The position numbers and the translations under genes were made by a program. Below the pieces are notes generated by a model that was given only the letters and a program-made list of their open reading frames with translations, was not told the DNA's origin and ran no database searches. A stretch of 58,849 nt of DNA, the filler included, from an uncultured archaeon (lineage in GTDB: Archaea > Nanobdellota > Nanobdellia > Woesearchaeales > CAIVOO01): the NCBI GenBank assembly GCA_903842985.1. It is 5 parts of 5 records of this genome, joined end to end, with 100 filler letters (N's around TTAATTAATTAA, not from the genome) between each part and the next. Parts side by side here need not be neighbours in the genome. Positions count along the whole stretch, not along the records: positions 9,574 to 38,851 come from CAIMOB010000054.1; 4 more parts are not named here. The stretch is one strand, 5' to 3'. Below, in pieces: positions 1,570 through 38,951 of this stretch (its first letter is position 1; each line of letters opens with the position of its first letter).

Positions 1570-1761
1570 ATGAAAGGAACAGTAAAATTTTTTAACGAAG
1601 GCAAGGGATTTGGATTTATTGCATGCGAAGACGGAAAGGAAGTTTTTGTGCACAAGTCAGCAATAGAAGAAGGCGTGACCCTGCATGAGAATGACGCAGT
1701 TGTCTTTGATGTGGAAGAGGGCGACAGGGGCCTAAAGGCAGTTAATGTAAAGAAAGAGTAA
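1570..1761 (+). CDS. cspA: cold-shock protein
   Basis: [17 protein letters not shown] (RNP1), VFVHKSAI (RNP2); SD AAGGAG upstream. Confidence 0.95.
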
Positions 1762-1780
1762 ATAAAAACTGTCAATAGCT

Positions 1781-1811
1781 ATTTTCTTTTTTTGTATTGA
1801 TTTTTTAATTT
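1781..1811 (+). terminator. oligo-T archaeal-type terminator after csp
   Basis: T-tracts ATTTTCTTTTTTTGTATTGATTTTTT between convergent genes. Confidence 0.4.
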
Positions 1812-2239
1812 TACCAAAGCCTGTAATTAGTATCCGGCTTCTCTTTCCCGTTCGGCGTGAACAGCTTCACAATTATTTCTGCGCCCTCGGGACCGACGCC
1901 CTTCACAGGAGAAATAATATCATAGACGCGCTTCAGCACCTTTTGGTAGCCGTTGCCTGCCTTGATGTTCTCAACCAGCGGAAGGCAATCCTTCATCGCT
2001 TCCTTAAATTCATTTACATCAACGCCTTCGAGCGCTTCGTCAATTGATGAAATCGCCATAAATGCGCCCTGCACAGGAAAGCCTGATTTGACAAGCTGGT
2101 CTGCAATAGAATAATAATCTCTCATTACAATTGGTTTTTCCGGGGGTGTATCTTGCATCTGCTTTCGGGCAAGCCGGCGGAATATAAGGCTTTCGCTTAG
2201 CATCCAAGCAATCAGACTATAATAGTATGCGTCGCACAA
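1811..2239 (-). CDS. hypothetical protein (start uncertain, possibly MQDTPPEK)
   Basis: ORF with plausible helical composition; no recognised motif. Confidence 0.5.
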   Translation of the reverse strand: MCDAYYYSLIAWMLSESLIFRRLARKQMQDTPPEKPIVMRDYYSIADQLVKSGFPVQGAFMAISSIDEALEGVDVNEFKEAMKDCLPLVENIKAGNGYQKVLKRVYDIISPVKGVGPEGAEIIVKLFTPNGKEKPDTNYRLW

Positions 2240-2305
2240 TATTTATATACCACCTTCCCGGTCAGATATCAAAAAGCGGCGTTCTGGGTGTTTTGAAATG
2301 AAACT

Positions 2306-2569
2306 TCATTTCATCTGCAGGCCCATCTTGTCCTGGAAGCTTGAGAAGCCGGCGCCTGCGAAGAACACAGCAAGATAGTCAATTGGATAGGACATTCTCA
2401 ATGCGTAGCCTGCGACGAAGCCAGCTGCAAATGCAGGCGCAAGAGTGATAAAAATTTTCAGCGGGTCAAACTTCAGTTTGGGATTCTTTGCTTTCTTCTT
2501 GACATAGCTCCAGACACCGCGCGAAACAGCGCCAAGCCCTGCAACAACTGCGACAATCAGCTGGTCCAT
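2306..2569 (-). CDS. small 3-TM membrane protein, similar to the 39-329 product
   Basis: AGLGAVSRGV / AGFVAG / FFAGAG pattern; TATA-like TTTATATA upstream. Confidence 0.6.
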   Translation of the reverse strand: MDQLIVAVVAGLGAVSRGVWSYVKKKAKNPKLKFDPLKIFITLAPAFAAGFVAGYALRMSYPIDYLAVFFAGAGFSSFQDKMGLQMK

Positions 2570-2676
2570 TTGTATAATAAAGACTAAATAATATATAAAG
2601 CTTGTCCCCGAAACATTTATAAACCGAAGATTTTACATAGCATATTTATACGGCAGAGATACTAAGAGGTTGTTTG

Positions 2677-5600
2677 ATGAGGAAAATACTGATTTTAAGC
2701 ATATTTCTTTTTGCATCAATGGCATTGCTGTCGGTGAATGTTGTAGCAGTAACGTCTTGCAACGATTTAATTATGACATCAACAGTAATAAATAATGATG
2801 TGTTGGGTTGCACTGGAACTAATGGACTAAATATAGCTGCACCAAATATTGTTCTTGACTGCAATGGAAGTACTATCTCTGATAGTGGGGCTAAAAACTA
2901 CATCGGAATATATAACACAGGAAATGATAATGTAACTGTTAAAAATTGTATCATAAATGGTTTTGATGTCGGCATATATTTTGGTACAGAAAATAACGGC
3001 ACTTTGGCAAACAATGTTATCACAAATTCTTTCAATGCTGGAATCAAGTTAACTGCTGGTGCAAACTTTACTCTTGTTGAAAACAACACCTTGCATGCAC
3101 ATCACTATGGTTTGTACGTTACAGGAGCTTCAGACAATAATACTTTTCTAAACAACATTGCACAAAGCGATAATACGGGCGGTTATGATATAGGTGTCGC
3201 CGTAGAAGGTACAGATGGTAATAAACTGATAAATAATTCAGCAACTAATGTTGACAGAGGAATAAGCCTATTCGATGATACGAATACACTGGTCCAAGGC
3301 AATAATATTTCTGATAATAATTTAGTTAATTCATATGAATCAAATACAGGACTTTACATATATGGAACAACAAATGGTGCTCAAATATTTGATAATAACA
3401 TAATGAATAATCAACAATACGGAGTTTTCTTAGGGACAAGCACATATAATAATTTAATTTATCACAATAATATTTATGGAAATCCTGATTATGGTGTTTA
3501 CTCTCAAATAATTCCTGTTGAACTTTCAAACGGCACTTCAGGAAACTACTGGGGACACACTTCCTGCCCTGTCTTCACAGCAGGCGTAGATTCAAATGAT
3601 GCAACTGTAACTGACAGCAATCCTTATAATGAATCTAATGGCTGGCTTTCACACGGGCCAGGATGCGGTGGCGCTCCTGCACTCAGCTGCGGCGACACAA
3701 TAAATACATCAAAAACACTGGCAGGCAATTTACCCAACTGCACCGGAAACGGCCTGAACATTGCCGCAAATAATATTGTTTTGAATTGTGCAGGGCATTC
3801 CATCAGCGGCGACGGATCAAGCATAGGAATAAATATAAATGGATTATCAAATGTGACTGTCGAGAACTGTGTCTTGAGCAACTGGGGCAACGGGATATAC
3901 CTCGGCGCTGCCTCCACTTTAAATACTATTTTTGGAAATACAGTTACTTCAGGTACGCACGGAATTTCTCTTGATTCCAGCACCAATAATTTAATACAAA
4001 ACAACGTCGTGAATTCGAATACCGCAGGGGATGGATTCGGACTCTATCTCCGTTCAAGCTCCGACAGCAATACTATACTGAATAACACTCTTAATTCAAA
4101 TAACCAGGGAATTTACATTTTCCAGTCTGCTTCCAATGTACTCACAAATAACACTGCCAGTTCAAATGCATATGCCGGATTTTACATAGAAAGCAGCACA
4201 GGCAGCACTTTTAGCGGCAATACTCTCACTTCAAACGTAAATACAGGGTTAGTTCTTTTATCAACTTCCGGCGATACAATATCGCATAATAACATATATG
4301 CCAATTCTTATCTGCAGATTCGTTCAGATTCAGCATTGGAAGCTTCAAATGCCGGCGAAGGAAACTACTGGGGTCGCAGCTGCCCAACACTTTTTGTACC
4401 TGGATCAGACTCCAACAACGTAACTGTAAATGACAGCGATCCCTATGATTCTCCAAATGGCTGGCTTTCAGGACCGCCAACTGTATGTTCTGCTCCTTTA
4501 TTGTGCAATGTTTTTAATGGTGATGAACCCACATGTTCAAGCACTCCTGGATGCACATGGCAGGATGCATGCACAGGCATTGTAAGCTGCGGAACCTTTT
4601 CTGGAAATGAGGGAAACTGCAACACTTACGGATGCTTCTGGAATCCAACCTGCACCGGAGCTCCTAATGATTGTTTAGCTTATTATCATGATGCGACTGG
4701 ATGCGGGAATGCCGGCTGCTCTTATGACGGAGAGAATTGCACCGGAACTCCTAATGATTGTTCAATTTACAGTTCTGACGGAACCACATGCAACTACATG
4801 GGATGTTCTTATACTCCAAGCTGTGATGACCCAAGCAGCAGCAGCTGCTCAGACTGGGATACAGATTTAATCACTTGCGCTGCTGTCGGCTGCACACAGC
4901 AGGACAGCTGCACAGGAACATATGTGCCGCAAAATACTTCAATTTCAATCAATTATCTTGGCGGGGACATCAGCATAAGGCCTAACCGCATATTCAATAT
5001 CACATTAAATGTTTCGTGCTTCGGACCAGATTGTGGAGAAATCAATGTCAGCCTGGACCCTTCTGCTTTGGCTTTTGACGGAGGCGCCGCTGGCCAATAC
5101 AGCAGCACTGATTCAGAGTCCATCTCCATAACCACCAACAATACTGATGACATAATTGTCCTGCTTGCTGCCCAGGAAACAGGAGCCATGCCCTCTGATT
5201 ATCCGGTGGCTGTCTCAAGTGTTTCAGGAGGAGGATTGACCTGGCATAGAAGAGCAGCATCAAATATAACTGGCGATGGTTTTGACCAAAGCAATGAGAT
5301 ATGGTGGGCTTATTCGCCAGGCATATTAACAAGCGAGCTTATCATTGTGAATTTGAGCGGGCAAATAGACGACGGCGCATTGCACATATTTGCGGTTAAT
5401 GGCGCAAACACAGCAGACCCTTTTGATGCAAATCCTTCTTTGCCGTCAATTGTAAACAGCGGGAACATTCCTCAAACAACCATGTCTACTTCAAATTCAA
5501 ATGATTTTATTTTTGCCATGTACGGGTGCCCAACATACCATTCTGCAACGGGAGCAGTTCCTCCGGACATGAATGTGCTCTTATCAATTCAAAATGGCGG

Positions 5601-36400: not shown

Positions 36401-37139
36401 GGCGATACTTTTTGCTTCCGGCAAAAAAGTGGCTTACGAAGAGTTAGCCAGAATATGCAATGTCCAGATTTCTGAAATAAAAGATGCGTTGAAAGAGCTG
36501 AAGGAAGATTTTGAAAAGAGCGAGTCTGCCCTGCTGCTGACAGAGGAAACAGACGGCTGGAAGCTGACCGTAAGAGAGAAATACTTATCGACTGTGCAGA
36601 AACTGCTGCCGGAGACAGAATTAAGCAAGACAATTCTTGAAACGCTTGCAGTTATTGCCTGGAAGCATCCTGTTCTGCAGGCAGATGTAATCAAGATAAG
36701 GACGAACAAGGCTTATGATCACATAAAGGAGCTTGAGGAACTTGGGTTTATCACAAAAGAAAAGAAAGGAAGAAGCTATCAGCTGAAGGTGAGCAACAAG
36801 TTCAGGGAATACTTTGAACTGCCTGGGCATGATGACATCAAGAAGATGTTCAAGGATGTTGAGGGAGCATTCAAGGATGAGAAACTGAACGAGCTTGAGG
36901 TTGTTGATGAGCCTGAGATAACCCCTCACAAATTCGGAAAACTGGATATAATCGATGTTCAGAAACCAAAGGCAGAACAGCCAGAACTTGAAGTTGTTGA
37001 TGTTCCGCAGGAAGAAGCTAAAAAGGAAAAAATAGAAGTAAAGGAAGTCCAGGAAGAGGAAGAAACAGAAGAAGCAGCTGAAGAAGAAAGCGGAGAAGCG
37101 CCTGCGGAAAAAGAAGAAGGCGAAGAAGAGGAAAAATAA
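36375..37139 (+). CDS. scpB: SMC-Scp complex subunit ScpB with acidic tail
   Basis: VEAILFASG, LSKTILETLAVIAWKHPV, IRTNKAYDHIKEL. Confidence 0.9.
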   Translation: MSELKKQVEAILFASGKKVAYEELARICNVQISEIKDALKELKEDFEKSESALLLTEETDGWKLTVREKYLSTVQKLLPETELSKTILETLAVIAWKHPVLQADVIKIRTNKAYDHIKELEELGFITKEKKGRSYQLKVSNKFREYFELPGHDDIKKMFKDVEGAFKDEKLNELEVVDEPEITPHKFGKLDIIDVQKPKAEQPELEVVDVPQEEAKKEKIEVKEVQEEEETEEAAEEESGEAPAEKEEGEEEEK

Positions 37140-37273
37140 TGATTCTAGTTCTCAGGTGCCCGAAGTGCGGGAATAAGATGAAATATGCCACTTCTGGCAG
37201 TTTGGAAGGCAAGAGAAAGAGATGCGTTTACTGCGGGAAGAGCTTTGCAGTCAGAGGAAGGATTGTGAAATAA
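37139..37273 (+). CDS. 44-aa zinc-ribbon protein (not in the ORF track)
   Basis: MILVLRCPKCG...KRCVYCGKSF; TAATG overlap with the scpB stop. Confidence 0.75.
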   Translation: MILVLRCPKCGNKMKYATSGSLEGKRKRCVYCGKSFAVRGRIVK

Positions 37274-38284
37274 TTATTGGCAGGCTTCTGCAAACCTACC
37301 CAGAACTCTTTTCCTAAGGTTATATGTATTTGCCCACATGGCATACCCAAACCAGCCCTGAAGGCTGTCAATAACCTCGCCTGCTGCCAGTTCCCCTGAT
37401 TTGCACAGTTTTAATTTTTCCTCAAAATTCCTTTTGAATTTTATTAAATTTCTTTTTTTCAACAGCTTATGGCAATGAAATACCCTGTAGCCAAGAAACG
37501 TTATTCCATTTCTCAACAGCATAATTTTTGATTTGTCTTGGTGCATTTTTAATTTTAGTGTTATGAGAAATCTATTTATTCTTTTTTTATACTGCTGAAG
37601 CACACAGCGGTTATTGTGCAGGATAATAAAATCATCCACATATCTTATGTAATACCTTGCCTTCAATTCGTGCTTTACAAATTGGTCAAGCTCATTCAGG
37701 TAGACGTTCGCGAAAAATTGGGATGTCAGGTTGCCAAGGGGCATTCCTCTGCCATTTTTCTTGTCAAAGTTATCTAATATCAGTTTTATCAGCCAGATAA
37801 TTTTTTTATCGTTTATTCTGTTTTTAAGGATATTAACAAGCACTTTCCTGTCTACTTCGTTGAAATAGTGCATTATGTCTGCCTTGAGAACAAAGCAGTT
37901 TCTCGTATTGTTTTTTGACACCTTGCGCTTAAAGAATTCGAACCTCTGGACTGCTTTCAATGTTCCCTTGCCTTTTCTGTTGGCATAAGAATCATGGATG
38001 AAGCTTTTTTCAAAAATCGGCTCAATTATATTGCAAAGCGCATGATGCACGACCCTGTCGCGGAAGTCTGCCCTGCTTATCCTCCTTGTTTTTGGGTCTC
38101 TCAGGATGAATGTTTTCAATGGCTTTGGCCTATATGTGTGGAATATCAGCTCGTTTCTCAACTGCAGAAGGTTTTCTTCCAGATTATTCTCAAACTCAAT
38201 CACGCAGGGCTTGAGTGATTTTCTTTTTCTTGCTTTCCTGAATGCGAGCTCAAGGTTTTTATAAGAACAAAGCCGACTATACAT
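37274..38284 (-). CDS. DGR reverse transcriptase
   Basis: FRDRVVHHAL, KADI..YF, GMPLGNLTSQ.FAN.YL (DGR signature), YIRYVDDF, FLGY; likely start ATG 38284 (ORF track uses TTG 38317). Confidence 0.95.
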   Translation of the reverse strand: MYSRLCSYKNLELAFRKARKRKSLKPCVIEFENNLEENLLQLRNELIFHTYRPKPLKTFILRDPKTRRISRADFRDRVVHHALCNIIEPIFEKSFIHDSYANRKGKGTLKAVQRFEFFKRKVSKNNTRNCFVLKADIMHYFNEVDRKVLVNILKNRINDKKIIWLIKLILDNFDKKNGRGMPLGNLTSQFFANVYLNELDQFVKHELKARYYIRYVDDFIILHNNRCVLQQYKKRINRFLITLKLKMHQDKSKIMLLRNGITFLGYRVFHCHKLLKKRNLIKFKRNFEEKLKLCKSGELAAGEVIDSLQGWFGYAMWANTYNLRKRVLGRFAEACQ

Positions 38285-38321
38285 ATTAAGCACATATAAA
38301 ATCCCAGCAAGAAGCAATGAG

Positions 38322-38406
38322 CTATTCCAAGGAAACGGCCATTGTTGTTGAGGTTGTTGTTGCCATTGAAGCCATTCCTGTTGTTGTTGAGGAACAGTAA
38401 CCGGCC
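38322..38406 (-). repeat. DGR template repeat (TR)
   Basis: GGC CGG TTA CTG TTC CTC AAC AAC AAC AGG AAT GGC TTC AAT GGC AAC AAC AAC CTC AAC AAC AAT GGC CGT TTC CTT GGA ATA G. Confidence 0.96.
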
Positions 38407-38563
38407 GCCCTGTAGCCTTTTCACCGCTGCATCACTGCTGCTTCATTCCTGTCGCAGCTGTATTTCATGGCCAGTTTTGGCCTTGATGAAAGGGCATGTA
38501 GCCCTGCCACTCCAAATAGCCTTCATTTAGAAAACTTCTTGGAAAGCTGGGATAATGAAAATA

Positions 38564-38851
38564 CTATTTGCTTTTGTAAATGCCTTTCAGCCCGCCCTCG
38601 AATTCTTCAAAAGCAGCCTGCGGAACGAACTTTTTTGAATATTTTAAAATCTGCTCAAGTGTTGGAGCTGATATTTTTTGCGACGCGCCTTCGGCGCCAC
38701 TGCGAACTACCCCAAGGAAACGGCCATAGTCGTCGAGGTTGTTGCTGCCAAAGAAGCCATTCCTGAGGCTGACGAGGAACAGCAACCGGCCCTGAGATTG
38801 TCCTGGATTTATGCTATCAAAAGTATGCCAGTTCCCATACTGTTCTGTATC
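38564..38851 (-). CDS. DGR target (variable) protein, C-terminal 95 aa, 5' truncated
   Basis: Frame open from the contig edge: DTEQYGNWHTFDSINPGQSQGRLLFLVSLRNGFFGSNNLDDYGRFLGVVRSGAEG...KSK*. Confidence 0.9.
   Translation of the reverse strand, partial: DTEQYGNWHTFDSINPGQSQGRLLFLVSLRNGFFGSNNLDDYGRFLGVVRSGAEGASQKISAPTLEQILKYSKKFVPQAAFEEFEGGLKGIYKSK
38685..38697 (-). promoter_or_regulatory. DGR cis-acting hairpin downstream of VR
   Basis: GCGCC-GAA-GGCGC, 9 nt past the VR 3' end. Confidence 0.7.
38707..38791 (-). repeat. DGR variable repeat (VR)
   Basis: 85 bp colinear with TR; 14 mismatches, all opposite TR adenines. Confidence 0.96.
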
Positions 38852-38951
38852 NNNNNNNNNNNNNNNNNNNNNNNNNNNNNNNNNNNNNNNNNNNNTTAAT
38901 TAATTAANNNNNNNNNNNNNNNNNNNNNNNNNNNNNNNNNNNNNNNNNNNN
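38852..38951. other. artificial contig linker
   Basis: N-run + TTAATTAATTAA + N-run. Confidence 0.98.

Follow-up and report, generated by a model that had tools for sequence, protein, structure and literature searches.

Introduction

The system analysed here is a diversity-generating retroelement (DGR) at positions 37274-38851 of a 58,849-nucleotide stretch of DNA (the window) from an uncultured Woesearchaeales archaeon (assembly GCA_903842985.1), and its closest described relatives are the DGRs of Nanoarchaeota DUSEL4 and groundwater DPANN archaea (Paul et al. 2015, PMC4372165; Handa et al. 2016, PMC5006420). The excerpts of PMC4372165 that describe the DUSEL4 elements give a range of 7e10-9e12 variants, the initiation of mutagenic homing sequences IMH and IMH* as TGGGGT and TGGAAT, and a GRA hairpin inside the target gene. 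In AvpA, the variable protein of a Nanoarchaeota DGR (PDB 5IOO), the excerpted account in PMC5006420 places the variable repeat (VR) internally, with 46 residues after it and an RFxGV strand encoded by the IMH. For DGRs at large, Wu et al. 2018 (PMC5758913) report that 26% are without avd (74% have it), with one lineage altogether without it, and suggest "Avd-independent mutagenic homing". As to the template RNA, a Bordetella study (bioRxiv 10.1101/2023.10.23.563531), in its excerpted text, examined only 40 nucleotides upstream of the template repeat (TR), and the excerpts of Weinberg et al. 2017 (PMC5737381) tie the RNA motif RT-10 alone to DGRs and leave RT-16 without a role.

We find that the element is a real and complete DGR of the AvpA type known from Nanoarchaeota and DPANN archaea. 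We hold with high confidence the fuller reading, in which this complete AvpA-type archaeal DGR is inserted between a Zn-ribbon gene and gyrA, and its reverse transcriptase (RT) is predicted to overwrite the 85-nucleotide VR of the target gene from a template led by RT-16.

The repeat pair and its cis elements

The core features all lie on the minus strand of the window:

37274-38284, minus strand: DGR reverse transcriptase gene, 336 amino acids, likely ATG at 38284; the open reading frame (ORF) extends without a stop back to a TTG at 38317 (37274-38317)
38322-38406, minus strand: template repeat (TR), 85 nucleotides, 27 A, 11 AAY codons
38322-38330, minus strand: IMH*, the last 9 nucleotides of the TR, UUGGAAUAG
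38564-38851, minus strand: target gene, 3' end, comprising the last 95 codons and the stop codon (38564-38566); an AvpA-like variable protein with C-type-lectin fold
38685-38697, minus strand: hairpin GCGCC-GAA-GGCGC with a GRA triloop, inside the target ORF, 10 nucleotides after the IMH
38707-38715, minus strand: IMH, the last 9 nucleotides of the VR, UUGGGGUAG
38707-38791, minus strand: version "C54" of the variable repeat (VR); the other version is at positions 24-108 of contig C13

TR and VR align without gaps over 85 nucleotides with 14 mismatches, every one of which falls on an adenine of the TR (8 A to G, 5 A to T and 1 A to C). The probability that 14 of 14 mismatches fall by chance on the 27 A columns of 85 is 5.3e-9. 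The initial annotation had described this alignment, together with the 27 adenines, the 11 AAY codons and the ~9e12 theoretical protein variants that these codons allow, and recomputation on the minus strand reproduced all of them. Its statement that every mismatch lies at a TR adenine also stood. Its use of all 14 as a count of diversification did not: the last two mismatches (GGAATAG in the TR vs GGGGTAG in the VR) are the fixed IMH/IMH* difference, and therefore 12 diversification mismatches remain. The same GG/AA difference occurs in all 20 TR/VR rows that we compared, namely this element and 19 from relatives. Homology between the repeats ends on both sides (25-nucleotide flanks compared), and extension to 88 nucleotides adds a single non-A mismatch beyond the repeat end. 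Translated in the frame that is open in the VR, the TR reads GRLLFLNNNRNGFNGNNNLNNNGRFLGIA, with its 11 AAY codons, and the ~9e12 variants lie at the upper end of the range printed for the DUSEL4 DGRs.

The VR lies in frame within the 3' part of the AvpA-like ORF, whereas the TR is non-coding and ends 37 nucleotides before the RT ATG. A stem with a G(G/A)A loop follows the IMH in 17 of the 20 VR rows (12 found by script, 5 by eye), and the stems differ from row to row yet remain complementary.

The reverse transcriptase

The RT ORF (37274-38317) is open and intact and carries the motifs LGNLTSQ and YVDD, as first noted. The protein has an RVT_1 domain (88.5 bits), and its best match among all PDB sequences is 8ub7_A, aligned end to end with E 1.1e-48 and 169 bits; the next matches are group II intron RTs (E 1.3e-19, 74 bits). 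The residues of 8ub7_A are identical to the RT ORF of Bordetella phage BIP-1, which stands beside that record's annotated "VR1, tropism-switching cassette", and we thus take 8ub7_A to be the prototype DGR RT (bRT). Identity to the BIP-1 RT is 34% (E 5e-40), and the alignment with bRT pairs LGNLTSQ with IGSLTSQ and YVDD with YMDD. The SQ motif is generally taken as diagnostic for DGR RTs.

The best NCBIfam model for the protein is TIGR04416, the group II intron RT, with 156.3 bits vs a cut-off of 300. Against the same model, six RTs from DGR contexts scored 72-153 bits and eight annotated group II RTs 275-450 bits. The six came from BIP-1, Bacteroides phage p00 and phages of Vibrio and Faecalibacterium (each with an annotated Avd), from a Moritella plasmid annotated with avd, and from a Methanomassiliicoccales virus. 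A tree of 25 RTs built by maximum likelihood holds two labelled classes only (no retron or UG/Abi references) and has an assumed root; in it a 100/100 branch parts the group II RTs, eight in number, from a group made up of six DGR RTs, ten archaeal RTs and our RT, and the latter sits inside a 100/100 clade with the archaeal RTs. The protein thus groups with DGR RTs and apart from group II intron RTs, as the initial call required, with retrons outside the tree. Four candidates for "other" RT references all turned out to be group II RTs, which leaves the tree with its two labelled classes.

The lineage to which this RT belongs is large: 7,924 clusters score at E<=1e-30 among 7,999 candidates scored, the nearest being 68% identical, and their sources label the homologues as Woesearchaeota or Nanoarchaeota archaea. 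Several relatives' RTs (14 of the 119 top matches) carry a C-terminal HTH_40 (PF14493) domain; ours is without it and represents a short form, and a search for a stand-alone HTH_40 protein in the same genome gave only an unconvincing 15-bit match. HTH_40-bearing RTs occur at L027:1610-3307, L030:1654-3312, L032:1216-2949, L033:1871-3655, L039:122-1522 and L042:910-2607 in the relatives' loci. Some RTs of the lineage lie on the strand opposite to the TR and the targets.

The target gene and its genomic setting

The element sits at the very end of contig C54 (window 9574-38851); a linker of the form N44-TTAATTAATTAA-N44, of the kind that joins the window's parts, begins at 38852. Position 38851 is thus a contig end inside the target gene, and for this reason the span holds just the last 95 target codons. 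The rest of the ORF was found on contig C13 of the same genome (878,927 bases in 60 contigs, completeness 92.65%, contamination 1.64%): in L001, a stretch of that contig, it occupies positions 1-726 on the minus strand, with the first ~186 codons at 169-726, outside the window, followed by a divergent gyrA.

The target protein has no match in Pfam, NCBIfam or PADLOC. A word-indexed search returned 12 homologues, the nearest 45% identical, and a full profile search returned, out of 1.84 billion, 997 representative clusters at E<=1e-3, of which 241 reach E<=1e-30. The alignment of 13 family members shows a fixed scaffold, QGRLLFL.....G(L/F).G...L...GRF.GV, with positions rich in N, D, Y, S and G between the fixed ones. 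We modelled the protein with AlphaFold (AF2; pLDDT 88.7, pTM 0.87). The only solved match that Foldseek returned was 5ioo_A, AvpA (E 2e-17, TM 0.77/0.88), the next match having E 0.3. VIA-align gave 5ioo at Z 27.1, with a root-mean-square deviation of 2.3 A over 207 residues and 32% identity, followed by C-type lectin domains at Z ~5. The 13-member profile, searched against the PDB, likewise has 5ioo_A "AvpA" as its sole match (E 8.8e-34, 120 bits). The target is therefore an AvpA homologue with a C-type-lectin fold, and since AvpA is the variable protein of Nanoarchaeota DGRs, the earlier remark that such systems are known in DPANN archaea holds. The VR is internal, a 48-residue tail follows it, and the IMH encodes the RFxGV strand (GRFLGVV). 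Reading of the sequence shows no hydrophobic stretch at the N terminus.

In G067, a genome of the same family, the upstream gene, scpB, the Zn-ribbon gene, gyrA and the next gene stand in contiguous order without any DGR. Because this synteny is contiguous there, the end of C54 and the start of C13 are taken as neighbours, which carries the locus past 38851. By this comparison, the cassette of ~2.1 kb (RT stop to target start) is an insertion in a conserved housekeeping block, between the Zn-ribbon gene and gyrA. Its position after the scpB operon with no viral genes on that side had been noted before, and the same can now be said of both sides: the flanks are scpB and the Zn-ribbon gene on one side and gyrA on the other, and viral genes are absent from both. 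There is one cassette only in the genome, in the order target(VR)-TR-RT on one strand.

Two further observations concern the neighbouring DNA. The gyrA gene (L001:992-4830, plus strand) contains an intein-like insert (GNFG/CFTAD... to ...VHN/SVDGD) that is missing from the gyrA of G067. On C13 it is divided between two ORFs that lie in different frames (992-1516 and 1573-4830), which points to a frameshift within the insert or to a misassembly there. Just upstream of the target start codon, L001:748-787 holds ~35-40 nucleotides that match many unrelated short contigs with 2-7 mismatches in all four public sequencing runs considered below, and we read it as a dispersed repeat because so many unrelated contigs are recruited in every run.

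A second version of the variable repeat

When TR and VR were searched against the whole assembly, a step of the kind that the initial annotation proposed for remote VRs, a second VR appeared on C13, which differs at TR-adenine columns only. C13 opens with 168 nucleotides that repeat the end of C54 except for 13 differences, which all fall in the VR at TR-adenine columns (P 2.4e-12 over 168 columns), and the flanks, 60 nucleotides upstream and 23 nucleotides downstream of the VR, are identical. Compared with the TR, the C13 version has 19 differences, 19 of 19 at A and 18 of them to G. Translated, the versions give VSLRNGFFGSNNLDDY and GSVGDGFGGGDDLDGS in place of the NNNRNGFNGNNNLNNN of the TR. 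The C13 version is matched letter for letter in a contig of run X2, and the contigs of runs X1 and X3 break inside the VR. Exact-pattern scans of metagenome contigs, with the flank upstream of the VR and with the TR/RT-16 junction, returned no spanning contig.

Most likely the sampled population carries the two versions as haplotypes of a single locus, a reading that we favour with moderate confidence. Whether or not it is correct, both versions descend from this TR through adenine-only changes. The absence of non-adenine drift, first remarked on for the TR and the C54 version, extends to every comparison: there are 0 non-adenine differences between the TR and either VR over 85 nucleotides, and 0 between the two versions over 168 nucleotides. 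The RT, TR, IMH/IMH*, hairpin, RT-16 and closing helix (described below) are all intact. Judged by these sequence features, the element was probably active recently.

Relatives across the phylum

Among the 401 genomes sampled from the phylum, 73 match the target profile, and they span 64 of 281 genera; one of these 73 is marked unpublished and counts towards the tally only. We examined 20 loci of relatives, a biased sample in that they were picked for strong target or TR-like matches. Adenine-specific TR/VR pairs were present in 14 of them (TR of 80-91 nucleotides, up to three VRs per TR), and an RT homologue lay in the stretch in 14 (388-445 bits).

Genes of the Avd type (PF05635) occur in 92 of the 401 genomes (four flagged unpublished, tally only), for example at G187:C9:15040-15354 and G133:C116:4650-4964. 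When the two counts are crossed, 18 of the 73 AvpA-positive genomes have an Avd match and 55 have none. Among the 14 genomes with verified cassettes, four have an Avd match (G209, G137, G325 and G083), each time on another contig, and ten have none. The Avd-type genes of this phylum, absent from the AvpA-type cassettes, probably belong to a second DGR class. The Avd-less state itself is a known feature.

The template RNA

Further features on the minus strand surround the TR:

38407-38551, minus strand: RT-16 RNA (Rfam RF03019), abutting the TR 5' end, 70.2 bits vs a gathering score of 50, model positions 1-158 of 158
38546-38553, minus strand: 5' arm of a long-range helix, AUCCCAGC
38301-38308, minus strand: 3' arm of the long-range helix, GCUGGGAU, 14-21 nucleotides past the TR end

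The 158-nucleotide "spacer" between the target stop codon and the TR is a full-length match to RF03019. RT-16 abuts the TR 5' end in 13 of the 20 relatives' loci as well, and it was found in 35 of 151 genomes of the phylum (an unselected sample) vs 0 of 14 control genomes. Of 34 relatives with RT-16, 16 have a match to the AvpA profile and 18 have none. Among the 18 RT-16 sites without an adjacent AvpA-profile match, 17 abut an adenine-specific TR and 15 stand beside an RT; because 17 of these 18 sites abut such a TR, RT-16 goes with the RT/TR unit regardless of the target. At the 17 sites (L069-L085) the diversified genes are unrecognised by the AvpA profile, which suggests that the same engine of RT, RT-16 and TR serves several target families. 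The best RT-16 score of the phylum sample (98.4 bits) belongs to an orphan, L068 (G061:C16:6531-6710), with no adenine-specific repeat pair or RT within ~3.5 kb.

A full-text literature search for RT-16 and RF03019 (the supplement of Weinberg et al. 2017 being outside its scope) led to the Rfam 15 paper and a 3D-motif survey, whose excerpts draw no link to DGRs. In a table excerpted from a survey of 3D motifs (PMC13085918), sarcin-ricin-like internal loops are recorded for several Rfam motifs associated with RTs, RT-16 and RT-10 (the RNA of the Bordetella DGR) among them. Their presence in both motifs hints at a shared RNA module.

When 14 cassettes (RT-16, TR and 120 nucleotides) were folded together with RNAalifold, a 7-bp helix was predicted that joins the opening bases of RT-16 to a site 10-20 nucleotides past the TR. 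On this alignment 87% of cells are paired vs 24-59% with the partner slid. Both partners vary in six of the seven pairs, and the covariation score was matched by 0 of 500 shuffles, a test biased in favour of the helix, since the structure was derived from the same alignment. When no alignment is used, 11 of the 14 cassettes still show a perfect complement of at least 8 bp (10 at p<=0.05). In our element it consists of 8 bp, pairing AUCCCAGC (38553-38546) with GCUGGGAU (38308-38301) at p ~0.013. RT-16 as a TR leader, the closing helix and the phylum-scale non-association with Avd go beyond the printed descriptions excerpted here, and we regard them as leads, not proofs.

Counter-evidence and alternative explanations

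Several observations weigh against the reading set out above. Avd is essential in the Bordetella prototype; here no match to Avd (PF05635) was found at E<=1 in the genome, which is 92.65% complete, and no ORF lies between VR and TR, leaving the cassette without Avd. In an independent set of 17 cassettes only 6 have a perfect complement of at least 7 bp (5 at p<=0.05), and RNAalifold did not recover the closing helix there, which we attribute to misalignment of the 5' ends by MAFFT; a crude 7-nucleotide helix search of the same set gave no enrichment either (mean 5.47 vs 5.06 pairs). The hairpin in the target ORF is thermodynamically unexceptional (dG -6 kcal/mol, z -0.6, with 46 of 200 shuffles folding equally well), and its energy was dropped as stand-alone evidence. 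The RT tree has the restricted class sampling and assumed root mentioned above. Four public DNA runs from one study cover the locus at 2-5x as short contigs, only one contig spanning the VR, and at this thin coverage the C54 version and positions 38652-38704 are uncovered.

The alternative that survives best concerns the two VR versions. They could sit in two target genes that arose by recent duplication, probably in tandem, and share one TR, with the ~0.8 kb between them lost as a short contig; the element would still be a DGR, and the pair would reflect past diversification of two genes instead of population-level variation. We consider this a possible account, though not the probable one. 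Relatives often have 2-3 target paralogues per TR, and the shortest contig in the assembly is 1570 nucleotides, so that a shorter one would be missing. In six paralogue pairs of relatives, the 23 nucleotides after the VR are identical in four and the 60 nucleotides before it in one, which is why recent tandem paralogues enter consideration and adds to the points against our reading. Conversely, five of the six pairs differ within those 60 upstream nucleotides, a flank that is identical here. Synteny with G067 places the end of C54 beside the start of C13, no other AvpA-profile match exists in the genome, and the four runs' contigs on C13:1-900, thinly covered as they are, show no further, diverged target body (80% alike or more).

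A second alternative, that the cassette is a frozen relic which stopped recently and whose VR no longer changes, seems to us quite unlikely. Only two VR versions are known, and related RT genes are often broken: seven in the relatives' loci are split into two overlapping ORFs (L034, L041, L069, L073, L077, L082 and L084), with five G9-12 runs and one (CT)n run in the overlaps, four of these six tracts standing just before the motif GMPLGNLTSQ. The RT ORF of our element, however, is intact and free of the poly-G or (CT)n slippery tracts that break the relatives. Its TR, IMH/IMH*, hairpin, RT-16 and closing helix are whole, and non-adenine differences are absent between the TR and either VR and between the versions, all of which favours a recently active element over a relic.

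That the RT is instead one of a group II intron, a retron or a defence-associated system, with an incidental repeat pair, is exceedingly improbable: a group II intron RT is the best NCBIfam model (156 bits), source labels on homologues read "group II intron RT domain-containing" or "retron-type" and PADLOC DRT-type models score 50-117 bits, but all scores lie below their curated cut-offs (TIGR04416 156/300, retron St85 (NF038233) 50.8/235, Drt3a 75/200), bRT is by far the best solved match, the tree sets the protein apart from the eight group II RTs with 100/100 support, the stretch 36900-38851 holds no match to a group II intron RNA family at E<=1, and the A-only mismatch pattern has P ~5e-9. 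Group II intron membership was ruled out on the TIGR04416 score, the lack of intron RNA and the tree separation. As for retrons, NF038233 reaches only 50.8 of 235 bits and no retron model is among the 25 best PADLOC matches, with no separate msr/msd search made; the best PADLOC match is merely a generic RT model.

Proposed mechanism

By analogy with the Bordetella phage DGR, transcription of the minus strand would yield an RNA of ~250 nucleotides (38553 to 38301). The closing helix may act like the avd:Sp "cPRT stop" duplex, delimiting the template RNA and positioning the RT. The RT would then self-prime on the RT-16-led template RNA and misincorporate opposite A, giving a cDNA that could home to the VR by means of the IMH and hairpin and overwrite the 85 nucleotides of the lectin-fold target. 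Avd may be unneeded, or an unrecognised protein or the RNA itself might take its place. The variable face of the target would bind a ligand, if the parallel extends that far.

A bolder version of this scheme, which we offer tentatively and think somewhat unlikely as a whole, is a minimal Avd-independent DGR, in which the 336-residue RT and a self-contained, helix-closed RNA of ~250 nucleotides (RT-16 plus TR) would suffice, the RNA doing the scaffolding and the stop and priming work of Avd and Sp. The pair of VR versions would then show such a system running in the natural population of a 0.88-Mb archaeon.

Comparison with known systems

As a DGR the element is ordinary for DPANN archaea, its type, cis elements and target fold being already in print. 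Its value lies in being a clean, compact (~2.1 kb) and intact example, with a single cassette, a housekeeping context, an RT without slippery tracts and two natural VR versions. RT-16 together with the closing helix provides a concrete RNA construct for asking how DGRs work without Avd, useful for studying the DGR mechanism and for building small targeted-mutagenesis tools.

With the DGRs of DUSEL4 Nanoarchaeota and groundwater DPANN archaea, as described in the excerpts of the 2015 and 2016 papers cited at the outset, the element shares the order target(VR)-TR-RT on one strand, a short TR bearing AAY codons (here 85 nucleotides) with ~9e12 variants, and the IMH TGGGGT vs IMH* TGGAAT. It also shares the GRA-triloop hairpin in the target ORF, the internal VR with a tail of ~46-48 residues and the RFxGV strand from the IMH, the AvpA fold (Z 27.1, 32% identity) and sequence homology to AvpA (E 8.8e-34), the lack of a recognisable Avd, and a chromosomal location in a tiny genome. 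It differs in organism and locus, the nearest RT being 68% and the nearest target 45% identical, and in lying between scpB/Zn-ribbon and gyrA. There is one cassette per genome here, compared with four or more per DUSEL4 genome in the same excerpts. A leader RNA (RT-16) and a closing helix are identified here, whereas the excerpts of PMC4372165 and PMC5006420 do not mention them (Paul et al. 2017 being outside this comparison).

The DGR of Bordetella phages BPP-1 and BIP-1 (mtd-avd-TR-Sp-brt) is alike in the end-to-end homology of the RT with its IGSLTSQ/LGNLTSQ and YMDD/YVDD motifs, in the adenine-specific transfer from TR to VR, in the IMH with a downstream hairpin, and in a target of C-type-lectin fold. 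In both systems RNA upstream of the TR pairs with RNA downstream of it, there as the avd:Sp "cPRT stop" of the excerpted bioRxiv study (10.1101/2023.10.23.563531), here between the RT-16 5' end and the post-TR site. Unlike the phage system, ours has no Avd gene, carries its structured RNA 5' of the TR (RT-16) and not 3' (RT-10/Sp), leaves a gap of merely 37 nucleotides between TR and RT start, and has a GRA triloop in place of a GRNA tetraloop. It is cellular whereas the prototype is phage-borne, and its target is not a tail fibre.

The comparison with the published RT-16 motif (RF03019, PMC5737381) is where the element adds evidence, namely that this orphan Rfam motif is the leader of a DGR template RNA in an Avd-less lineage. 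As in the excerpted definition, the full-length match above the gathering score stands beside an RT gene. The published role is blank in those excerpts, whereas here and at 30 other sites (13/20 + 17/18) RT-16 abuts the 5' end of an adenine-mutagenic TR.

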